A stretch of 61,365 nt of DNA, counting the filler, from Rhabdomonas costata (lineage: Eukaryota), in assembly GCA_019059605.1 (NCBI GenBank). It is 22 parts of 22 records of this genome, joined end to end, with 100 filler letters (N's around TTAATTAATTAA, not from the genome) between each part and the next. Parts side by side here need not be neighbours in the genome. Positions count along the whole stretch, not along the records: positions 1 to 2,698 come from JAHMHO010002323.1; 21 more parts are not named here. One strand, written 5' to 3'. The translations under genes were made by a program, and so were the position numbers. A model generated the notes under the pieces. It was not told the origin of the DNA, searched no databases, and saw only the letters and a list, made by a program, of their open reading frames with translations. Below, in pieces: positions 1-36,066 of the stretch (positions are counted from its first letter, which is position 1; each line of letters opens with the position of its first letter).

Positions 1-88
1 GTGGTGGGGTAGCTGTCGTGGCGGTGGGGGAATCGGTACACGCTGTTTTGGTTGGACATATTACGTGAATCGTTACTCTGTGCTACAG

Positions 89-2471
89 GTGATCGGTTTT
101 GCCAATCGGCTCAAGGCATTCCCGAACGTGGCGGGCTACAGCGTCATGGAATTTTTGGACGAGGTCTAACCTTCTCTTCTTATCCCTTTCCTGTATGTAC
201 CGTTTTCTGCGTCTCCACTCGCTAAACATTGTTTTTTTTCTGTGCCAGTGGTGGAAAGTCTCTGTAGACTACCAAAACCCGGAGTGCCCCAACCGCCGCG
301 CCGACCTCCACACCATGTGTGCAAACTGGATTCAGAAGGGAGGAGCAAAGCAGGAGGACATTGCCATTCACGAGCGTTGGCTCGGGATGTTTGGCCAGAC
401 CCTGCCGCAGAAGCTGCGCAGTTCGACCCAATACTGCATCCAGCCCAAGAAGCTGTACTACGCCCTGGCCAAGCTGTGGGGCGGAGACACCATCAGCGGC
501 GAGCGCTGCGCCTATCAACGTTACCCTGACCCTCTCGTTTTCATGGTAAGAGCCCTTTCCGCTAAAATCCCACAGTTGCATCTTCTGGCGGGTATCGGAA
601 GCAAGTCTGGTTGCGTCCTTTTCAGGTGGGGCCCATGTTCTTTGCCGTGGTGTGTGAACTGCTCTACTTGATATATTTCAAGCTCATGGGAAAGAAGCCC
701 GCTGACGCGAAGCTGGACCTTCGGCAACGACTCACTTCTGAAGAGCCCGCCGAAAGCACAATTGCGGTTGCTCCTTACCCACTTCTTTTCTCCTTTCCTT
801 TTCTCGTGACAGCCCTTTCTGTCACATCTTCTCTGGCGTTTTTGTTGTCTTGGTATTTCCAACCATGTTTTAGGGTACTGAGGGCCGTGCTCAAGAGGGA
901 ATGTCTGATGCGGAACTGTGGAAAGACATTCCCGGGCGGGACATCATGGGCCGCTTCCAAGCCATTCAGGACCGGGTCAAGGCCGCCTTCGAGCCCTACC
1001 AGCCCCTCGTGGTCCCTGACGGCGAGTCCGGTGATATATATGGGTGCTGCATCCGGCGCATGGCACAGGCTATTTGGGACACGATGCTGGCGATGGATCC
1101 GGACAAGAACAGCGACGTCTCCTCTGAAGAGCTGGAAAACCGGAGCATTCGCCTCGTTTACGTGAGGTGCGTGCGCGCTGCCGCAACGCCACACAGCGGC
1201 TGGGGTGCAGCACCAAGAAAAATTTTACAAGAAGGAGCGCGCGAGAGGGGGGAAAACAAAAGACAATAGAGTGAGAAGGGGGGGGGCAAATAATGCGATG
1301 GTGGAAGAACGTCAAAACGTCATGGGGCGAAACATAAGGAGTGGGAAACCAAAATGGGAAGAACTGGAGGACAACAGAGGGGGCAGACCGATCAGAGCCC
1401 GGGGGGGGAAATCGAAGTTGAAAAATGACAGCAAACGTGCCAAAGAAGGGACATAGTGAAGGGGTGCAAGAATTTGGCGGAGGGGGGGACCAGCAGGAAT
1501 GGGATCTGTGAATAAAATCTCCTTTTCTCTCTCTCTTTTTTTTTAGGTTTGTTTCCTGTGCTGAACAGCTCGCCCTTTACCATCTCGCGCAGGCAAATGG
1601 AGGGTTTCTACGTGTGGAAGCAGCAAGGGGTTCCGCGGACGGATCACGCTGTGCAGGCCACCGGGATTGGCCACGAGGAGCCTCCCACTGCCGAGGGCAT
1701 GCTGGACGACCTCAGCCTGTACGAGATCGTGCGGCTGTACGCCGGAACGATCAACCACTGCCCCGAGAGGACCATGGAAGTGCTGTACTACACCCAACAG
1801 TACCTCCAGAACTGCCGCGGCTCTGCCCTGAACACCACCCGCAGAAACCTGCACTGCCTTCTTCGCGAGCTCTTCAGGATTCTCTACTGCTACATAGCTG
1901 CCCGGGTTTGTGTTGAACTTTGTTCCAGGAAGCAAGGGGGGCCATGATAATGTTGTCGTTTGTTCCTTTGCCCTCCCTTTCCCCTTCATCGGTTCCTTTC
2001 CTGCCCCCTTGTACACCCACGTATGTTCTAGTCATTGCCTCGTTTCCCTCCATTGTCGTTTGCTCCCCACGGCTTTCTCTCGTCACTTGCTTCCTAATTC
2101 CACGCCAATCGAATGTGTGCACAGAAGGACGACACTCGTGCGGTGCTTGCGCAGGTTACTTTGGACGACATCAACGCCGACTCTGTGGTGTTCCGCTCAA
2201 ACCCCATCCCATTCGAGTTGGACTCCCCCCTTCAGCCCCACGAGGAGGATCAGCTCCGGCACTCCTTCACCCCAGAGGTGTACAAGAAGGTCCTGAAGCA
2301 GGTCCAGATCCACCGCTACGTCAGCGACCCCCCTCTGACGGGGTTCACTTCGACCTACCTGGCCTGGACGGACCCCGCCGTGGCCCGGGCCGGGCCCGGA
2401 GTGGACCGTAGCCAGCCCCGCAAGATCATCGCTGAACCCCAAATGCACGAGTACAGGACGCCAACCACGCG
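89..2471 (+). CDS. Internal exons of a large membrane protein: glycoside-hydrolase-like C-terminus, TM helix, then an FKS1/callose-synthase domain-1-like region (candidate beta-1,3-glucan/paramylon synthase)
   Basis: Six phase-compatible GT-AG exons: 89-163, 249-545, 626-766, 874-1166, 1593-1905, 2125-2471. The spliced protein contains GYSVMEFLDEWWKV...HERWLGMFG...PKKLYYALAKLW, a hydrophobic helix (LVFMVGPMFFAVVCELLYLIYF), and DLSLYEIVRLYAGTINHCPERTMEVLYY...LFRILYCYIAAR...VTLDDIN, which resembles FKS1_dom1. The exon structure is well supported; the product is inferred. Confidence 0.55.
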
Positions 2472-5597: not shown

Positions 5598-8231
5598 GGT
5601 GGTGTTACTGCAGCTCAGGTTGTGTTTCGGTCCTGCGAGGACATCGCCTTGGCGATGTTTGCCAGGGGGCGAACCTATCTATCTATGGGTGACGTCCGGG
5701 ATGCCTTTGTTCGAAGTCTGCAGTGGCTCACGACCCGCTCCTCTGGCGAAGGGCTGGCCAGCAATGCTGCAGAACGGCCCGAAGAGAAGGAGTTGGTTGA
5801 CGATTTTCTGGTATGCGCGCCTCTGAGGGTTGGCCGGCTTCGGGAGCTAAAGGCCGCGGTGTCGTTCTCCCACCTGAGTATTCAGGAATTCTTCGCGGCC
5901 CATCGCCTCGTAGAGGAGCCCTCCGTGCTGTGCGGCGAGCCAGCTTGCGTTGGCCTGGACCTCCGCATCTGCCCAAGCATCCGCGGCTTCGTCAGGGACT
6001 TGTTTGTGCACCGCACGCCGGAGGAGCAGGCGCGGTGGGTATCCAGCTTGCGTGGGATTGTGGAAGCCACCCGCGGAGACAAGCACTGTGCTGGAGAATC
6101 GCTGAGTAGTTTATGGGGCACGGATGCCGAAGGACGGAAGTGTCGCTCCGCTGCCAATGCAATGACCCTTATTGCAGCTGTGGACCACATCGTCCAGGGT
6201 TGGGACCTGTCAAGGTGCCGCTTTCCCGGTGCCCATCTGGATGGTTTGCAACTTTTGCACAGCAAGTTATGCGGGGCAGACCTTAGCCACTGCGTGCTCA
6301 CCCGGCCTCGTTTCGTGGACGTGGACCTGAGGGATGCTGCACTGGGGGAGGTGTTTTGTGGGGAAGAGGCTCCTCTGCTTGGCCATAACAGGGCTGTTCG
6401 GTCAGTAGCAGTCACACCCGACGGAACGCGCATCGTGAGCAGTGGCGAGGATAAGACAGTCATTTTATGGAACCCGAAAAAGAAGACAGGGGAGAGGAAC
6501 CTTCGGGGGCATGATGGCATAGTTCTGGCCCTGGCGGTGACACCCGATGGAGCTCGGGTTGTAGGTGGAGGCGACGATTGTTGGGTAATGATATGGAATC
6601 TGGAGAGTGGAAGAATGGAGCAGAGTCTCAGAGGCCACGAGGAGACAATCCGGGCTGTTGTGGTGACCGAGGATGGGACTCGCGTTGTGAGCGGCGGTGA
6701 TGATAAAGTGGTGAAGGTTTGGAACCTTCGCTCGGGGAAGGTGGAGCAAACTCTGAAGGGTCACAAAAGTTCCGTGACTGCCTTGGCTGCCTCTGGAACT
6801 CGCATTTTCAGCGGGGACGGGGGTAATCTGATAAAAGTGTGGCTCACAAGCAGCTGGAAGGAGGAACGAAACCTAAAGGGTCACAAGGGAGCCGTAAGGT
6901 CAATGGCAGTGACACCGAATGGTGCTCACCTTGTGAGCTGCGGAGATGACGGTCATATCAAGGTATGGGACTTGAACAGTGGGAAAGAGCAGCGCAGTGT
7001 GTTGGCCCACACCGACATCATCTGGTCGGTGAAGCTCACACCTGATGGCGCCAACGTTTTAAGCGGAAGCTCTGACACCTTGGTCAAGGTTTGGAACTTT
7101 GAGAGTGGCAGAGAAGTGCAATGCTGCCGGGGCCATGATGGTGCTGTTTTTACGGTTAATGTCACCCCAGATGGGGCCCTGCTACTGAGCGGAAGCGAGG
7201 ATAAGTCGGTCAAGCTATGGAGTCTGCAGCGCAGCGAGGAGGAACGTTGCCTTGATGGCCACAAGAGTGCCGTCAATGCAGTTGCCATCACGCCAGACGG
7301 GGTGCGGGGGGTAAGTTGTGGGGATGATGCCACAGTCAAGGTATGGAATCTACAAAGTGGGAGAGCAGAGCGGAACTTTGCAGGCCACACGGGTCACGTG
7401 AAAGCTGTCGTTGTGATGCCAAGTGGCGAGCAAGCGGTAAGCGCCAGCGAGGATAAAACTGTCCGGATTTGGAACTTGAAAAGCGGTGTTGAGGAGCTGA
7501 ACTACCAAGGGCACACCTCGCCGGTTTTAACCTTGGCTACAACACCTAATGGAACGCGTGTGGTCAGTGGAAGCGAAGATGGGACTATTAAGATTTGGAA
7601 CCCTGCGGGTGGCGCGGAGGAGCGAACCCTCACCGCTGGGGATGGGAGCGTTATGGCCCTGGCAGTGTCACCCAATGGGACGCACATTCTCAGCGGAAGT
7701 GGCAACGTGATTAAAATCTGGAGCCTAGCTAGTGGGGAAGAGGTGCAAACCCTTTTGGGGCATACCGATCGTATCTGCTCACTCACACCCACCCCTGACG
7801 GAGCCCGGCTTGTCAGCTGTGGCCAGGACGCGTCGGTCAGGGTATGGAATCTGGATACGTGGGCAGAAGAGAACTGTCTCCGAAGCTCGAATGCCTGGGT
7901 TCTTGGGGTGACTGTGACTGCAGATGGTTCGCAAGCAATAAGCTGTGGCTGCGACGGGTCGGTGAACGTGTGGAACCTTAAAACCAGGCTACTGGAGAGG
8001 ACCTTCCCAAGTCGCAAATGCTCTATAAATGGTGTGGCGGTCACCCCCGACGGCTCCCGAGTTGTGAGCTGTGGCGGGGATAAGACCATCCGCGTGGCTT
8101 CCCTGCATCCCGAAAGTAGTGACTTTCGAACACTGGGCTACGGTGCCCCTATCGTTGAGAGGGTCTTGCTGTCGGAGAACTGTGATGCCCCAACCCTTCT
8201 TCGCGCCGGTCAAGCTCCGCAAGCCGTCTAA
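5598..8231 (+). CDS. STAND (NACHT-type) C-terminal region + pentapeptide repeats + 14 WD40 repeats; 5'-truncated, intronless
   Basis: The frame is open from the contig start. It has the NACHT winged-helix motif SFSHLSIQEFFAA, then an AANAMTLI...DLSRCRFPGAHLDG...GADLSHC pentapeptide block, then 14 WD repeats of the form GHxxxVxxVAVTPDGxRVVSGSxDxTVKVWNL (about 6375-8110). Confidence 0.92.
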   Translation, partial: GGVTAAQVVFRSCEDIALAMFARGRTYLSMGDVRDAFVRSLQWLTTRSSGEGLASNAAERPEEKELVDDFLVCAPLRVGRLRELKAAVSFSHLSIQEFFAAHRLVEEPSVLCGEPACVGLDLRICPSIRGFVRDLFVHRTPEEQARWVSSLRGIVEATRGDKHCAGESLSSLWGTDAEGRKCRSAANAMTLIAAVDHIVQGWDLSRCRFPGAHLDGLQLLHSKLCGADLSHCVLTRPRFVDVDLRDAALGEVFCGEEAPLLGHNRAVRSVAVTPDGTRIVSSGEDKTVILWNPKKKTGERNLRGHDGIVLALAVTPDGARVVGGGDDCWVMIWNLESGRMEQSLRGHEETIRAVVVTEDGTRVVSGGDDKVVKVWNLRSGKVEQTLKGHKSSVTALAASGTRIFSGDGGNLIKVWLTSSWKEERNLKGHKGAVRSMAVTPNGAHLVSCGDDGHIKVWDLNSGKEQRSVLAHTDIIWSVKLTPDGANVLSGSSDTLVKVWNFESGREVQCCRGHDGAVFTVNVTPDGALLLSGSEDKSVKLWSLQRSEEERCLDGHKSAVNAVAITPDGVRGVSCGDDATVKVWNLQSGRAERNFAGHTGHVKAVVVMPSGEQAVSASEDKTVRIWNLKSGVEELNYQGHTSPVLTLATTPNGTRVVSGSEDGTIKIWNPAGGAEERTLTAGDGSVMALAVSPNGTHILSGSGNVIKIWSLASGEEVQTLLGHTDRICSLTPTPDGARLVSCGQDASVRVWNLDTWAEENCLRSSNAWVLGVTVTADGSQAISCGCDGSVNVWNLKTRLLERTFPSRKCSINGVAVTPDGSRVVSCGGDKTIRVASLHPESSDFRTLGYGAPIVERVLLSENCDAPTLLRAGQAPQAV

Positions 8232-14099: not shown

Positions 14100-16518
14100 T
14101 GCCATTTTCGGAGCCCAGGATGACATTGTACTCGGAGATGGTGTACTCCATGGGGTGGACCAGGCCCTGCAGGTGCGGGAAGAGCTTCTCGATGCGCTTC
14201 CACGTGCCCTGCCGCACCACGTCGTCGGAGATGTACAAGTCGTGCTCCAGTACGCAATCCTGTGGGTCCGAAGCCATGCGCAGACCTCGAGTGTGGGACA
14301 TCATTCAAAGTTGGAAAAGGAATACTCAGACGGCGGAGATGACAGAACACCAATTGACATGGTGTGTGAGTCCTATGAATAAAAAACCTGCGGGATGTAG
14401 AAAATTTGCCCTTGCAACAACCAGAGGACATGCACAGCGGCAGAATCCGAAACTCTTCGGCACTGCCCTCATTCTCACGCCAAACATTTGGGGCTTGACA
14501 GTGAGACGTAAAAAAAATAGTTTGGGACTCGCTCGAAAAGGTCGGGAAACGCCTGGAAAAGGCCACAACGTGTCTTAGAGCTGCACTCAGTTTTTCCAAC
14601 AGGCACTAATTCACACTTGCAGTTAGAGCACTATAGAGGTTGTTGACGCATTCAATTTTTTTTTCGACTCCAGTGACCAACTTACGAATAACCTGTACAG
14701 TTCGCGGCTTTTACCATCATGTCAGTATGTCTGAGAGGTGAGAGCTGTGATACCTGCTCAGGAGCATAGTACTCAGCCACATCGGGAGGGGCACGGCCCT
14801 GCAAGGTGACCTCCGCTGGAGACACTCCAGGGGGCTTCCCCACGACGTACCTCCCCGCGGGAATCTTGACAAACTTGAGCTCAGTGAACACTGTGGATCA
14901 AAAGACAGTGGTGTACCTTGGTATGCAAATAAAAAGTCAACATATATATTGCTTCGAGGCCATCTCATGTTCGGAACAATCAAAATACAGGTCGCGGTGA
15001 ACAGTATGAAGTAGGTGCATATGGTGTTCCCCCGGAGTCTGAAGGAACGTACCGTAGAAACCCTGAAAGCGAATGAAAGGGAGGTTGGGGCAGGTAGCCC
15101 GACCGAGTGGTAATGGGGCCCTATCATCTTACGAAGTTTTTCCGTTGGCAGGAGGACGTTAGCAAAAGGTAAGCGCGGTGCGGGAAGAACGCATGGGGGG
15201 AGGTCAGGCAGACTGCCCTCGATGGTTTTCATCACGTCCTCGCGGCGAGCAGCCAGCAGGCGGTCATCCTCGGCGATTCTCTTCCAGTCTCGGCACACCC
15301 GCATACAGGTTTGGCACAGTTCATGCTCAGTTAGAAACCGGAAGGCCTGTGAAGTAGAGAATGTGGGGGGTATCAGTGACACGAAAAGAAGGGACCCTCC
15401 ATCCCAGCTCGAGGGTGAGGCGCCGGAACTGTGTGCAGTCAGTGGCTGCGAGACTGAGGCAGTCTGTTTCGTGTTTCCTCCGTTATACTGACGGCCTTTT
15501 AATTCCCCACAGCGCTCGGAAGGTCGCTTTTCACTCCTTTAAGAATAACTCCAGTCAAGGTCAACGGGGCCGGATTAGGCACAGTCCTACCGAGGGCTGG
15601 AGTTCGTGGTTGTATCGGTTGGGTTTGAGATGGGCCTTCTGCCAAGTGAGTCATATAATGCAGTTTTGTGAGCAGTTTTGTGGGAATCGTCGCTGTCAGG
15701 ATACCTGCACGTGGCGATGAACTGACACCAACTCACAAAACCAACCATTCGCAGGGGACCTCCAAGGACCCGCCCGCCACTGCACCCCACTCAAGTTCGC
15801 TGAAACAAAGACACAAACCCCAAGCAGAGCGATCCTCAGCTCTACAGGGACGGAGGCCCTGTCCGTGCGCACCCTTAGGATGTCCTGAGCGCGCAGCACG
15901 GGACGCTGCGGCCCGCCAGAGGACGGCCGCCGCGCGGCGGACGCAGAGTAGCCTCTCCCTGGAGGCGGCGGGGAGCTCAAGTAGGCCAGGAGGCGAGCCA
16001 CCTCCCTAAAACGTGTCGCACAACGAATAATAGCACACGGAGAGCGTCAGCACTTGTCAGCTTCATGGCAGCCCAAATGAAATCTTCGGGTTGAAAGCTA
16101 CAGGACTGCGTGCATCTTGAAGGTATCGGAAACAACAACACTGACAGCAACACTGCACAGGGAATTGTTCACCAGAGCGGGCAAACAATCAGGGAAAAAA
16201 TGAGCATACATGCAGTGAGGGACAGAAAGACATCCAGTCCCACCTCGTCACTAGAAGCGGACTCCTCACGGTGCTCACGAAAAAGAACCAAACCAATTAC
16301 AGGGTGGCAAATCGAAGCCATGCCCATCCTCCAGTAACAGTCAGGGATAAAAAGAAGCTCACGTACTCTTTGCGGAGGCGCTCCTGCTCTTGGGCCTCCC
16401 GGAGCCTCAGCGCGGCGTCCAGCCTTTCAGCCTCTGCCGCCTGGGCGGCAGCCTCCGCATCGACACGCAGGCGCTCCTCGCGGGCCTCGACCTCCAAAAC
16501 CAGAGGGCTGGCATCCAT
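14100..16518 (-). CDS. F-box protein with N-terminal coiled coil and a downstream FGE/SUMF1-like segment (partial)
   Basis: ATG at 16518 starts MDASPLVLEVEAREERL. The spliced F-box reads FRRLTLELGWR|AFRFLTEHELCQTCMRVCRDWKRIAEDDRL (about 15430-15398 and 15347-15217). It is followed by FVKIPAGRYVVG (14891-14755) and PQDCVLEHDLYISDDVVRQGTW (about 14286-14100). Confidence 0.65.
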
Positions 16519-28836: not shown

Positions 28837-29454
28837 TCATGCTTGGTCATGGACACTTTTTACTGCAGAGGAGGAAGAAACCGGTGACTTGTTCGCGGCA
28901 TTGGAGAGGTAGATGCTCCAGAAAAACCCAACCACGTTGGCCCACAGCACTCGAAGCTCCGGGGGAACGACCTTGAAGTTGATGAGTTGGGCAGGAATCC
29001 ACACCGAGTAATTGGTGAGCAGGGTGGGCAGCCAGTCCTTTCTGAGTTTGTCGTGGGTTTGGTCAAGCTTGCCCTCCATGCACAGGGTTGCACTGAAGAA
29101 GACGACCACAAAGACCGGAGCAAAGAGAGCCTGATCCAAACCAACACGCTGAACTGCAGCGCCGAAGCCTGGACCAGCGATCCTCGTAGAAAGCAGCCCA
29201 TACCACCAGTGAACAATGGGCGGAACAAACACAGTGTTCAACGCGGCGAAGTTCGTCGTGCGCTGCCACTGGATTCGCTGAAGGACAGGCAACTGGAGCG
29301 CTTTCCTGTCCAAAGGGAAGTTGATCTGGCAAACAATGTCCGCGGCAGTGGCGATAAGGCCGGCAGTGATGCATTTAGTGAGAATAGGCCTGGCCTCCAG
29401 AAGCTGATTGTATCGTTGCCAAAGGAAAACCAGGAAAGGAAAGGCTCGCCGCAT
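28837..29454 (-). CDS. Mpv17/PMP22 family membrane protein, single exon
   Basis: YNQLLEARPILTKCITAG..ADIVCQ, RT..F, HWWYGLL, VGLDQALFAP and NYSVWIPAQLINFKVVPPELRVLWANVVGFFWSIYLS are canonical Mpv17/PMP22 motifs. ATG at 29454. Confidence 0.95.
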   Translation of the reverse strand: MRRAFPFLVFLWQRYNQLLEARPILTKCITAGLIATAADIVCQINFPLDRKALQLPVLQRIQWQRTTNFAALNTVFVPPIVHWWYGLLSTRIAGPGFGAAVQRVGLDQALFAPVFVVVFFSATLCMEGKLDQTHDKLRKDWLPTLLTNYSVWIPAQLINFKVVPPELRVLWANVVGFFWSIYLSNAANKSPVSSSSAVKSVHDQA

Positions 29455-30834
29455 CTTAGTAAATTTCTTGTGGAGAAATAAGAGCAGATCCAAAACTGCA
29501 TGGAAAAACAAGTGTACCCTTGGGGTGGGGGAAGTAGGGTAGGCGGCGCAGGCCATTTTGCTCCAACTATATCGAACCAGGTTAAGAAGGTTGGGTTTCC
29601 ATCACTGAAAAAAAGGATATTCACCGGAGGTATCCCCACTGCTCTGGCGGGAAGGTGCCCGCAACGGGTTTGTAGCTACCAAAGACGTCCTGCCCAAAAG
29701 AATCAGCAAGACCCATATGCAGCAAACAAAACTGATGTGAGAGATAAGATACGCGCTACAATTACGCTGAAAATGCTGTCCATTGCAGTGAAACATCCCA
29801 TCCACTGACGTGGCCACTAGAACCCGACCTTTCAATTTCTTGCGGATGGGCTGTTCGGCGAATGAACACACCCCCACCACACATTCACTCACTCAATCAC
29901 TGTGAACGTAGCAGCTGGTTTCCGTGTAAGCATTCGTCGGGTGCCAAACTTAAGTGAAACGCCTGCGTTGGGGAGGGGGGGCTTCCGTGGTACGCGTAGT
30001 ATCGCAGCGGCCGTGGGGGCAGCGTGCGTCCGCGTCTCTCTGCACGAACGTTATCCTCGACGAGAGGAGCGCGTCTTTGCTGTTCAGGACCTGCGCGAGC
30101 GTGCAATATACTCCATCTGGATCGCGTCGAGTGGGTGACCAGCGAGGTTTCAGGGCTTTTGCCCGCTCGTGGCGGTGCGTGAAGCCGCCGTTCTCGGGAG
30201 CGAGCGCATTCCCCTTTCGGAGGAAAAACTCTCACTTTCTTTGGAAATGGACCGGACAAACCTGCACGCGTCAGAACCAATCCCAATCTTCGCCTATCGT
30301 GTGCATTGCAGTACCCCAGGCTGTGCGTACAGAAGACGCTGAGAATGTTCAGCTGTATTCATGCAATCCAAAACGACCATAAGAGTAAATCCGGCCACGG
30401 AGCATGCGAACGCCGCAATGGCATGGCACCACCCGCTCCCTCTGTCCCTCTGTCTCTGGGGAACGCCAACTCCGGGTAATTGAGGCGTACCCGTGTCATA
30501 CGCGGGCACGCCGTGGGAGCGGGACCCCGTCACGAATTGCGACACGAAGTTAGGTGGATGGACACGGGATCACTGAAACGCACATCTGAAGCAAAAAAAA
30601 AGGACATGTCTCTGTTGCAGCACAACATACGCAAAAGACTATAATCTTNNNNNNNNNNNNNNNNNNNNNNNNNNNNNNNNNNNNNNNNNNNNTTAATTAA
30701 TTAANNNNNNNNNNNNNNNNNNNNNNNNNNNNNNNNNNNNNNNNNNNNCCCCATTTCCCTCCTGCCTCGAGTTACTAGGAAAATGTTGGGTCTTAACATG
30801 TAACTTTGAATGAAGAGTCTCTGACTTCCCGCAG

Positions 30835-35010: not shown

Positions 35011-35670
35011 TGGGAGAAGTGGCGCACGGGGAAGAAAGAAGACGCCGGCAGAAGGCTACGTCGGAGAGAATTCCTCTTAGAATTCATTGGGCGGGAAGGT
35101 ACGTATTGGATACATCCGTGACTTTGAAAAAAATATCACATGAACAAATATATGCAAACAAAAATAAATACAACAAACATATGACACGAAAGTGATCGGC
35201 AAGCTTACGATTGGCTAAGGGGTGAAGGCTTGAGAACATGAGGAGAGTCTTTGCTGTCACTGAACTTGGGCATATAGCAGTAGCATGGCCAAGCGCCTCC
35301 GGGTGGTGTGTGGATTTCTAACCACCGTATCCCCCTCTGGCAAACAAGCCGCTTCCTGAGGAGCAACCCACAATTAACCAATCTGAAGAAAATTTTTCTT
35401 CCGGGAAAGTGACGACCCAGCTGAGTGGCCCATTTTTTTTTAAAAAAAAGCGGAAAGCCGGATGGAATGCCCATTGCCATATACTGTCAAAATCAGAAGC
35501 ATTCATATATGGGTAGAAGAAGGGAAGTCACCGAACCAACTCCGACGAAGGCCCCCCACCCCCCCCCCCCTCCCCACAATGTGTACAAACAAACCCGGGG
35601 GGGAGGGGGGCGGGGTGCTGGAGCTGCAGGGTGGTGTTTCTGCCACACGGGTTCTGACGCTTCTGGTTAG

Positions 35671-36066
35671 GATCGTGATGGTGTCCAGCATGGCAGGGCA
35701 GGCCGGGATGGTGGGCTACTGCTGCTACGCCCCCACGAAGTTCGCGCTGCGAGGGCTGGCGGAGTGCCTCAACATGGAGCTGTGCCCGTATCGCATCGGG
35801 GTGTCGGTGGTGAACCCCCCTAACGGTAAGCCAATGCGAGGAGAGAGAAAGCCGGTGACTTGGTGCCTGATAGCGCGGCTGCCTGTGAGTTTCCTCGTGG
35901 TGGTTGTGCTGGCGGTTGCTTCGTTCTCTTTTTTTCTTATGGGTGCGTTGCCGCTCTTTTTGGCCCCGTGGAGTTTTGTGGTTCAGCCGTTTGCTTTTAT
36001 GTGTGCTCAGTGGATACCCCGATGTACGCCGAGGAGATGAAGGCCAAGCCTTTGGCGACCAAGCTG
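35671..36066 (+). CDS. KDSR: Short-chain dehydrogenase, 3-ketodihydrosphingosine reductase-like (internal exons)
   Basis: Exons 35671-35825 and 36011-36066 give IVMVSSMAGQAGMVGYCCYAPTKFALRGLAECLNMEL...VNPPNVDTPMYAEEMKAKP. The YxxxK motif and the PPxxDTP...EExxxKP motif are typical of KDSR/TSC10. Confidence 0.8.

Follow-up and report, generated by a model that had tools for sequence, protein, structure and literature searches.

A Rhabdomonas costata glucan synthase-like gene fragment from a family that joins a glycoside hydrolase-like domain to a GT48 synthase

Introduction

Paramylon is a commercial β-1,3-glucan whose synthase is known only genetically. The yeast glucan synthase FKS1 starts in the cytosol, without a signal peptide, an extracytoplasmic glycoside hydrolase (GH) domain or an extra transmembrane (TM) helix, and its N-terminal region and glycosyltransferase (GT) domain are both cytosolic. 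The β-1,3-glucanosyltransferases of family GH72 are separate fungal wall proteins held by a glycosylphosphatidylinositol (GPI) anchor. Here we analyze a stretch of DNA from Rhabdomonas costata, 61,365 nucleotides long (positions 1-61365, hereafter the window), in which positions 89-2471 are, judged by homology, an internal fragment of a euglenid glucan synthase-like (GSL; CAZy GT48) gene, of the family that includes the paramylon synthase of Euglena gracilis. We consider it quite likely that this fragment runs from the end of a clan GH-A-like domain through a TM helix into a counterpart of FKS1 domain 1, and that it belongs to a tethered synthase-remodeler.

Two glucan-synthase transcripts have been reported in E. 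gracilis (PMC8227486). The knockout of one gene, EgGSL2, is described as leading to the loss of paramylon granules (PMC12501133), and the second paralogue, EgGSL1, is listed in the plastid proteome as seqid 4050 (bioRxiv 10.1101/573709). Three R. costata transcripts, RCo003309, RCo003310 and RCo022891, are given as orthologous to EgGSL2 by Soukal et al. (2021; PMC8219788); since Rhabdomonas GSL2 orthologues have thus already been reported, the window gene is a member of a known family. For the GH side, the abstracts of two papers call family GH72 unique to fungi or treat it for fungi only (PMC6882867, PMC10783099). In Schizosaccharomyces pombe the pair Ghs2-Bgs3 is presented as a GH-family protein in strict partnership with a GT48 synthase (PMC13612389). 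Our literature search, which excluded supplements and Tanaka et al. 2017 (FEBS Lett), found no paper on a GH domain carried by a euglenozoan GT48 synthase. A search for literature linking Euglena with GH72 found none, and for paramylon with glucanosyltransferase the only match concerns a fungal glucan synthase. The GH-plus-GT48 domain layout appears to be under-described.

Results

A six-exon gene fragment on a short contig

Artificially strung together, 22 contigs make up the window; each measures about 2.69-2.70 kb, and the sizes fall slowly along the chain. They are joined by 21 linkers, each of the form N44-TTAATTAATTAA-N44, and adjoining pieces are not genome neighbours. The published draft of R. 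costata is described as highly fragmented, with an N50 of 1194 bp, a longest contig of 8093 bp and 51.6% GC (PMC8219788). The GSL fragment lies on contig 1 (positions 1-2698), with the first linker starting at 2699.

An earlier appraisal of this DNA, made from the letters alone and referred to below as the sequence-only reading, had proposed that six exons splice in frame at 89-2471. This observation is confirmed: the plus-strand exons 89-163, 249-545, 626-766, 874-1166, 1593-1905 and 2125-2471 give a spliced model of 1466 nucleotides with 488 complete codons and no stop, and all peptides quoted in that reading were located in the modelled exons. The five introns (85, 80, 107, 426 and 219 nucleotides) are all of the GT-AG type. 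Exon borders were fixed from the open frames of the plus strand and from tblastn of the homologue P0001, a Eutreptiella gymnastica 'Glycosyl transferase 48 domain-containing protein'; all six exon pieces are colinear with residues 212-698 of P0001. The fourth intron (1167-1592, 426 nucleotides) is much longer than the other four, which span 80-219 nucleotides, and is rich in purines, including several stretches of 6-10 G.

Exon 1 (89-163, 25 codons), aligned by tblastn with P0001 212-241, encodes a helix and a strand (VIGFANRL...AGYSVMEFLDE) close to where the GH-A-like domain ends. It is followed by exon 2 (249-545, 99 codons, 54% identity to P0001 241-339), which contains WWK, a four-cysteine segment (CPN...HTxC...C...C), the motif HExWLG and the first residues of the TM helix. 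Exon 3 (626-766, 47 codons), together with positions 534-545 of exon 2, makes up the single TM helix, aligning with the TM segment of P0001 at 334-360, and continues into a linker of basic and acidic residues. The euglenid-conserved cytosolic region (FEPYQP..PDGES.DIY...WD) is encoded by exon 4 (874-1166, about 98 codons, 38% identity to P0001 393-480), whose donor, GTGCGT, leaves two nucleotides of a codon. Exon 5 (1593-1905, about 104 codons) gave a phmmer match to P0001 483-584 at E 1.6e-31 and 57% identity. From position 1699 it carries a divergent FKS1_dom1-like core (MLDDLSLYEIVRLYAGTINHCPERTMEVLY...ELFRILYCYI), placed by register comparisons. This FKS1_dom1-like stretch ends with 2125-2193 of exon 6 (2125-2471, about 116 codons, 31% identity to P0001 586-698), which contains TLDDIN, where D591 and N593 are invariant in the alignment of the seven relatives described below, and continues as a variable cytosolic linker to RTPTTR.

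Two of the borders required a choice or remain weak. A pyrimidine-rich acceptor is present at 1546, and the start of exon 5 was nevertheless set at 1593 (acceptor cgcgcag): only that join yields ...IRLVYV-R-QMEGFYVW, matching IRVVYIKMMEGYYIW of P0001, and because no other join reproduces the homologue across the junction, exon 5 must begin there. The donor of exon 3, GTTGCT, is weak; this least certain boundary was drawn from frame and homology only and is a point against the model.

The fragment is bounded by introns. Positions 1-88 (plus strand) are the 3' end of an intron, in which nothing before the acceptor at 88/89 (ctgtgctacag followed by G) resembles P0001. At the other side, the donor at 2472 (an exon-final G followed by GTATGA) leaves two nucleotides of an Arg codon and opens the next intron, which occupies 2472-2698 on the plus strand up to the contig end and in which the relatives' continuation, LLYGSESL, is absent. 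Since both flanks are intron, the GSL gene is cut at both ends, with its GT48 part outside the window. Searched in full with P0001 by tblastn, the window gave nothing below E 0.5 outside 77-2472. The window thus holds 22% of the gene, about 488 of some 2200 codons.

Full-length relatives and their domain layout

An exhaustive phmmer search with exon 5 returned P0001, P0004 and P0007, and a second search added P0010-P0014. The four remaining exon 5 matches (of seven) were dropped: P0002, P0005 and P0006 are repeat-rich and unrelated by Pfam, and P0003 is a fragment of 78 amino acids. The comparison set comprises seven full-length relatives of 2172-2780 amino acids, taken from euglenids, Bodo saltans and metagenome contigs. 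Three are euglenid (P0001, P0010 and P0011) and four kinetoplastid-type (P0004, P0007, P0012 and P0013). P0011 is the E. gracilis transcript product EukProt EG_transcript_73, and P0013 is a B. saltans 'glucan synthase-like protein, putative', whose entry in the protein collection is already annotated with PF03198 and PF02364.

The spliced product aligned end to end with residues 309-786 of the 2254-residue P0011 (45% identity, E 3e-144), and likewise with P0010 216-697 at E 1.5e-138 and P0001 216-678 at E 1.8e-137. These closest proteins are all euglenid and 43-45% identical to the window product. The four longer relatives also align with it, at 23-28% identity and E 1e-39 to 2e-26, and the euglenid and kinetoplastid-type groups share 27-31% identity with each other. 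The glucan synthase domain PF02364 was found in every one of the seven, at E 8e-103 in P0001, 4.9e-105 in P0011, 4.2e-100 in P0010, 4.8e-103 in P0013, 1.5e-102 in P0012, 1.8e-95 in P0004 and 8.4e-100 in P0007. The window fragment is therefore orthologous to proteins (P0011, P0010 and P0001) that each bear PF02364 at E ≤ 1e-100. A profile of the seven sequences searched against the PDB matched yeast FKS1/GSC2 at E 1e-75.

All seven relatives have the same layout in one polypeptide: a GH-like domain, one TM helix, a cytosolic region, a multi-TM block and a GT48 domain. The first three of these elements are physically linked on the window's contig. The fusion of a GH domain, a TM helix and a glucan synthase that the sequence-only reading had called is accordingly borne out in the full-length relatives, and its two halves form one gene in seven independent full-length sequences; it is not demonstrated from the window alone, whose contig includes neither the catalytic Glu residues nor the GT48 domain. 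A Euglena protein with the same architecture (P0011) exists, so the call stands for a gene family that is not new. P0011 (transcript 73) is probably EgGSL2, an assignment made by elimination only, because EgGSL1 is seqid 4050 and E. gracilis has two such transcripts.

Searches started from isolated exons speak against this assignment. Pfam gave no relevant match on the six separate exon translations, phmmer of exon 2 and exon 5 against PDB sequences gave nothing below E 0.9, a word-indexed search for longer proteins resembling exon 2 found no match, and an ESM Atlas search with exon 5 found no usable match. The sole Pfam match listed for the exons, a PAAT-like one at E 0.12, was set aside as noise.

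The glycoside hydrolase-like domain

The GH72 model PF03198 (Glyco_hydro_72) matched the four kinetoplastid-type relatives above its cut-off of 25.9 bits, with 51.5 bits for P0007, 39.9 for P0004, 37.3 for P0012 and 32.9 for P0013. Against the PDB, the seven-sequence profile matched Gas2 (GH72; E 2e-7), the catalytic domain of a GH2 enzyme (E 7e-7) and GH158 (E 5e-6). Two short motifs, G-N-E-L (P0001 90-93) and T-E-F-G (P0001 186-189), are invariant in all seven proteins. A single-sequence phmmer comparison of the N-terminal part of P0011 with the PDB sets them against ANE and TEYG of a GH2 glucuronidase, at a best E of 0.23 that gives register only. We take these aligned motifs to be the GH2 acid/base and nucleophile motifs, which in clan GH-A belong to strands 4 and 7 respectively.

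The window product starts about 25 residues after TEFG, and both Glu motifs lie upstream of P0001 residue 212, off the contig; therefore only the last third of the GH-like domain is encoded. The sequence-only reading had spoken of the end of a clan-A GH barrel, and the relatives support the phrase. The encoded part retains the motifs that are invariant in the family, except that HEEWLG has become HERWLG. These include M-E-x-x-D-E in exon 1, invariant in all seven relatives, as well as W242 W243 K244, C254, C265, H280, W283 L284 G285, C302 and C326, which are invariant in the seven-sequence alignment A1 and among which are the four cysteines of the window-encoded part. MEFLDE was also considered as the catalytic nucleophile and was ruled out, the aligned nucleophile motif TEFG lying about 50 residues upstream, off the contig.

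Several results weigh against the GH assignment as it applies to the euglenid copies. None of the three euglenid relatives reached a Pfam GH cut-off, the only candidate being GH2_C (TIM barrel) at 15.5-19.5 bits against a cut-off of 21, and PF03198 had no match among the window exons. The euglenid domain is linked to GH72 solely via alignment A1. For the activity of this copy in particular, the window carries neither the catalytic Glu residues nor any GT48 domain. An AlphaFold2 (AF2) model of P0011 20-455 had a mean predicted local distance difference test score (pLDDT) of 51.6 and was mostly below 50 in its second half. The strand/helix alternation of this low-confidence model fits a barrel, and Foldseek placed GH2 and GH158 barrels at the top of its matches, at E 2e-7 and TM-scores of only 0.30-0.35; these matches to GH-A barrels lend weak support.

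Membrane topology

The sequence-only reading had placed one TM helix after the GH-like part, and such a hydrophobic stretch does exist. Over 19 residues, Kyte-Doolittle hydropathy of the spliced product peaks at 2.23 at residues 122-140, across the join of exons 2 and 3, and this stretch is aligned with the one hydrophobic segment that each relative has after its GH-like domain. The N-termini of P0011, P0013, P0004 and P0012 show a short hydrophobic stretch followed by small residues, taken as a putative signal peptide; that this was judged by eye counts against the call. P0001 starts inside the GH-like domain and is 5'-truncated. The putative signal peptide, together with the four conserved cysteines and the single TM helix, would put the GH-like domain outside the cytosol, and we infer a lumenal GH-like domain followed, after the TM helix, by a cytosolic region.

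A probable counterpart of FKS1 domain 1

The sequence-only reading had also matched the stretch with ELFRILYCYI...TLDDIN to the FKS1_dom1 pattern. By the curated test this call fails, because Pfam PF14288 (cut-off 27 bits) matches neither the exons nor the relatives: there was no match at E ≤ 10 in the exons, at E ≤ 1 in P0001, P0010, P0011, P0012 and P0013, or at E ≤ 0.01 in P0004 and P0007. What survived is the position of the stretch, on which BLASTP, two HMMER runs and hhalign agree in register. A metagenome protein of 1546 amino acids, P0014, matches PF14288 at residues 1419-1529 as a canonical domain 1 (E 3.8e-14), and in BLASTP both P0001 519-551 (E 0.27) and Bodo P0013 at about 660-698 (E 0.068) fall on the first 33 residues of that match. 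HMMER placed family profile positions 646-692 on residues 313-359 of yeast GSC2, ahead of the two GT48 stretches and in colinear order with them, at a score of -0.6 bits that is not significant alone.

Aligning the euglenozoan slice with the canonical slice in hhalign gave a score of 26.8 (P 0.0068) over 87 columns, which none of 200 column-shuffled templates reached (mean 13.8, sd 2.4, maximum 24.0). The canonical template profile is thin, only three carrier proteins having been found. A hidden Markov model (HMM) of the canonical slice had its best stretch at the homologous site in seven of eight targets, including residues 306-340 of the window product. Beside the Pfam failure, three further results tell against the call: the HMMER scores at the site were only about -4 to +4 bits, in targets that are related to one another; the hhalign probability was 5.6%; and the AF2 model of the cytosolic region (P0001 388-750, from an alignment of seven rows) was unusable, with a mean pLDDT of 38.5. 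Both AF2 models are poor, which counts against a firm fold for this region or for the window-encoded end of the putative barrel. Taking the comparisons together, the most conserved cytosolic stretch is a probable, strongly diverged counterpart of FKS1 domain 1.

Other contigs of the window

At 5598-8228 on the plus strand, an uninterrupted frame of 877 codons fills its contig and encodes WD40 repeats (Pfam WD40, E 9.5e-121, 12 stretches). Many further β-propeller families also match it, and it is intronless, unlike the GSL gene. A 718-codon frame covers most of another contig at 36874-39027 on the minus strand. Its only match is a sub-threshold one to AAA_30 (E 3e-4, 21 bits against 27), and it may encode the helicase of a mobile element. 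Frames of the Mpv17/PMP22 type (28840-29601, minus strand; Pfam E 1.3e-24) and the F-box-like type (14720-15538, minus strand; E 2.8e-6), and a short-chain dehydrogenase fragment (35444-36037, plus strand; E 8.7e-11), are ordinary gene fragments of other contigs.

Discussion

The domain order suggests how such a protein might work. A signal peptide would deliver the GH-like domain to the lumen, and the one TM helix would lead the chain back to the cytosol, where the FKS1_dom1-like region and the GT48 domain would use uridine diphosphate (UDP)-glucose, pushing β-1,3-glucan through the membrane as FKS1 does. With this topology the GH-like domain would be located at the exit point of the new chain, which in euglenids presumably lies within the membrane-bounded paramylon compartment. 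There it would transfer, trim or release the nascent glucan. From its motifs, the domain is most likely a retaining transglycosylase or endoglucanase acting on nascent glucan, and if so, the protein would be a covalently tethered synthase-remodeler pair.

A non-enzymatic role would also account for a GH-like domain in this place, as a glucan-binding or scaffolding pseudo-glycosidase that holds or orients the chain as it emerges, or fixes the synthase to the granule. Divergence keeps the euglenid copies below every Pfam GH cut-off, the lineage-specific motifs encoded by the window (DEWWK, CPN..HT.C and HEEWLG) could not be placed in a solved GH structure, and the pLDDT is below 50 over the window-encoded part. 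Set against these points is the invariance of GNEL and TEFG in all seven proteins despite 27-31% identity between the groups, when such motifs are usually lost in dead enzyme domains; we find a pseudo-glycosidase quite improbable. A live enzyme is favoured over a binding module because both glutamates are conserved across about 30% identity. A similar question attaches to the stretch LSLYEIVRLYAGTINHCPE...TLDDIN, which might be a lineage-specific cytosolic segment whose likeness to FKS1 domain 1 arose by chance or convergence. PF14288 is without a match at E ≤ 1 in exons or relatives, HMMER scores at the site are near zero, the hhalign probability is low on a canonical template of three sequences, and the seven targets are homologous to one another, so that their agreement is not independent evidence. 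The same register nevertheless came out of four comparisons and is colinear with the GT48 matches, no shuffled template reached the hhalign score, and the segment occupies the position of FKS1 domain 1, cytosolic and ahead of the TM block leading to the GT domain. We therefore keep the diverged domain 1 counterpart as the probable reading and regard chance likeness as rather unlikely.

Even if the domains are read correctly, the window copy might not be a paramylon synthase. It could be a paralogue devoted to another β-glucan or compartment, or else a copy in decay, within a fragmentary assembly. In keeping with this, three similar R. costata transcripts are reported (PMC8219788), E. gracilis has a second paralogue, EgGSL1, listed in its plastid proteome (bioRxiv 10.1101/573709), and the window covers only 22% of the gene. 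The same layout also occurs in Bodo. Decay is opposed by the absence of any stop or frameshift in 488 codons, by the intact splice sites and by the retention of the family motifs except at HERWLG; the intact frame argues against decay only and does not distinguish among paralogues. Overall we think it improbable that the copy is something other than the paramylon synthase. B. saltans is not known to make paramylon. Its sharing of the layout is a point against reading the architecture as one for paramylon: the family need not be tied to that glucan, the fusion would be older than paramylon, and its role may differ between lineages.

If a lumenal domain for glucan processing is part of the synthase, one polypeptide may govern the chain length, release and crystallisation of paramylon, an idea testable with the genome-editing tools already used on EgGSL2, among them Cas9 RNP/ssODN knock-in. 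It would amount to a covalent version of the synthase-remodeler partnership of fission yeast and would extend GH72-type domains beyond fungi. A stronger proposal, to which we give only a small chance, is that euglenozoan GT48 synthases are self-contained synthase-remodelers in which a lumenal retaining GH-A domain would bind the nascent β-1,3-glucan as a covalent glycosyl-enzyme intermediate and pass it on to other chains, which would set chain length and start the crystalline packing of paramylon. Were it true, it could explain the 'protein-glucan intermediate' in paramylon synthesis that a 1978 paper names in its title, it would mean a GH72-related glucanosyltransferase outside fungi, and the fusion would predate paramylon. 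The practical gain is an annotation that ties an unplaced 2.7-kb contig to a GSL gene and supplies its exon model and domain map.

Comparison with known systems

The closest known system is the Euglena GSL itself. EG_transcript_73 (P0011) has the same layout as the window family and is 45% identical to the window product over all 488 residues. With yeast FKS1/GSC2 (PDB 7xe4, 7yuy and 9wzs) the relatives share a GT48 core that matches over two long stretches (E 1e-75), and the FKS1_dom1 site lies upstream of GT48 in the same order in both. The systems differ in that FKS1 domain 1 is recognised by PF14288, whereas its euglenozoan counterpart is not.

The GH72 enzymes of the Gas/Gel/Phr type offer the nearest match to the other half, with the family profile aligning to Gas2 (PDB 2w62) over about 210 residues at E 2e-7. 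GH72 enzymes act on β-1,3-glucan outside the cytosol, as the euglenozoan domain would. Unlike GH72 proteins, the euglenozoan GH-like domain is fused to the synthase, and in euglenids it has diverged so far that GH2 and GH158 score about as high as GH72. P0014 shares with the window family the order of GH-like domain(s) followed by FKS1 domain 1, and with the window product the motifs DEWWKG and EEWFG. It differs in having tandem GH72/GH2-like domains, both with DEWWKG and EEWFG, and a canonical domain 1, and it ends before any GT48. This protein suggests that GH-plus-GT48 fusions may also occur outside Euglenozoa. In function, the nearest parallel is the Ghs2-Bgs3 pair of fission yeast, which as described consists of two proteins with a GH16 partner (PMC13612389), whereas the euglenozoan arrangement brings a GH-A domain and the synthase together in one polypeptide.

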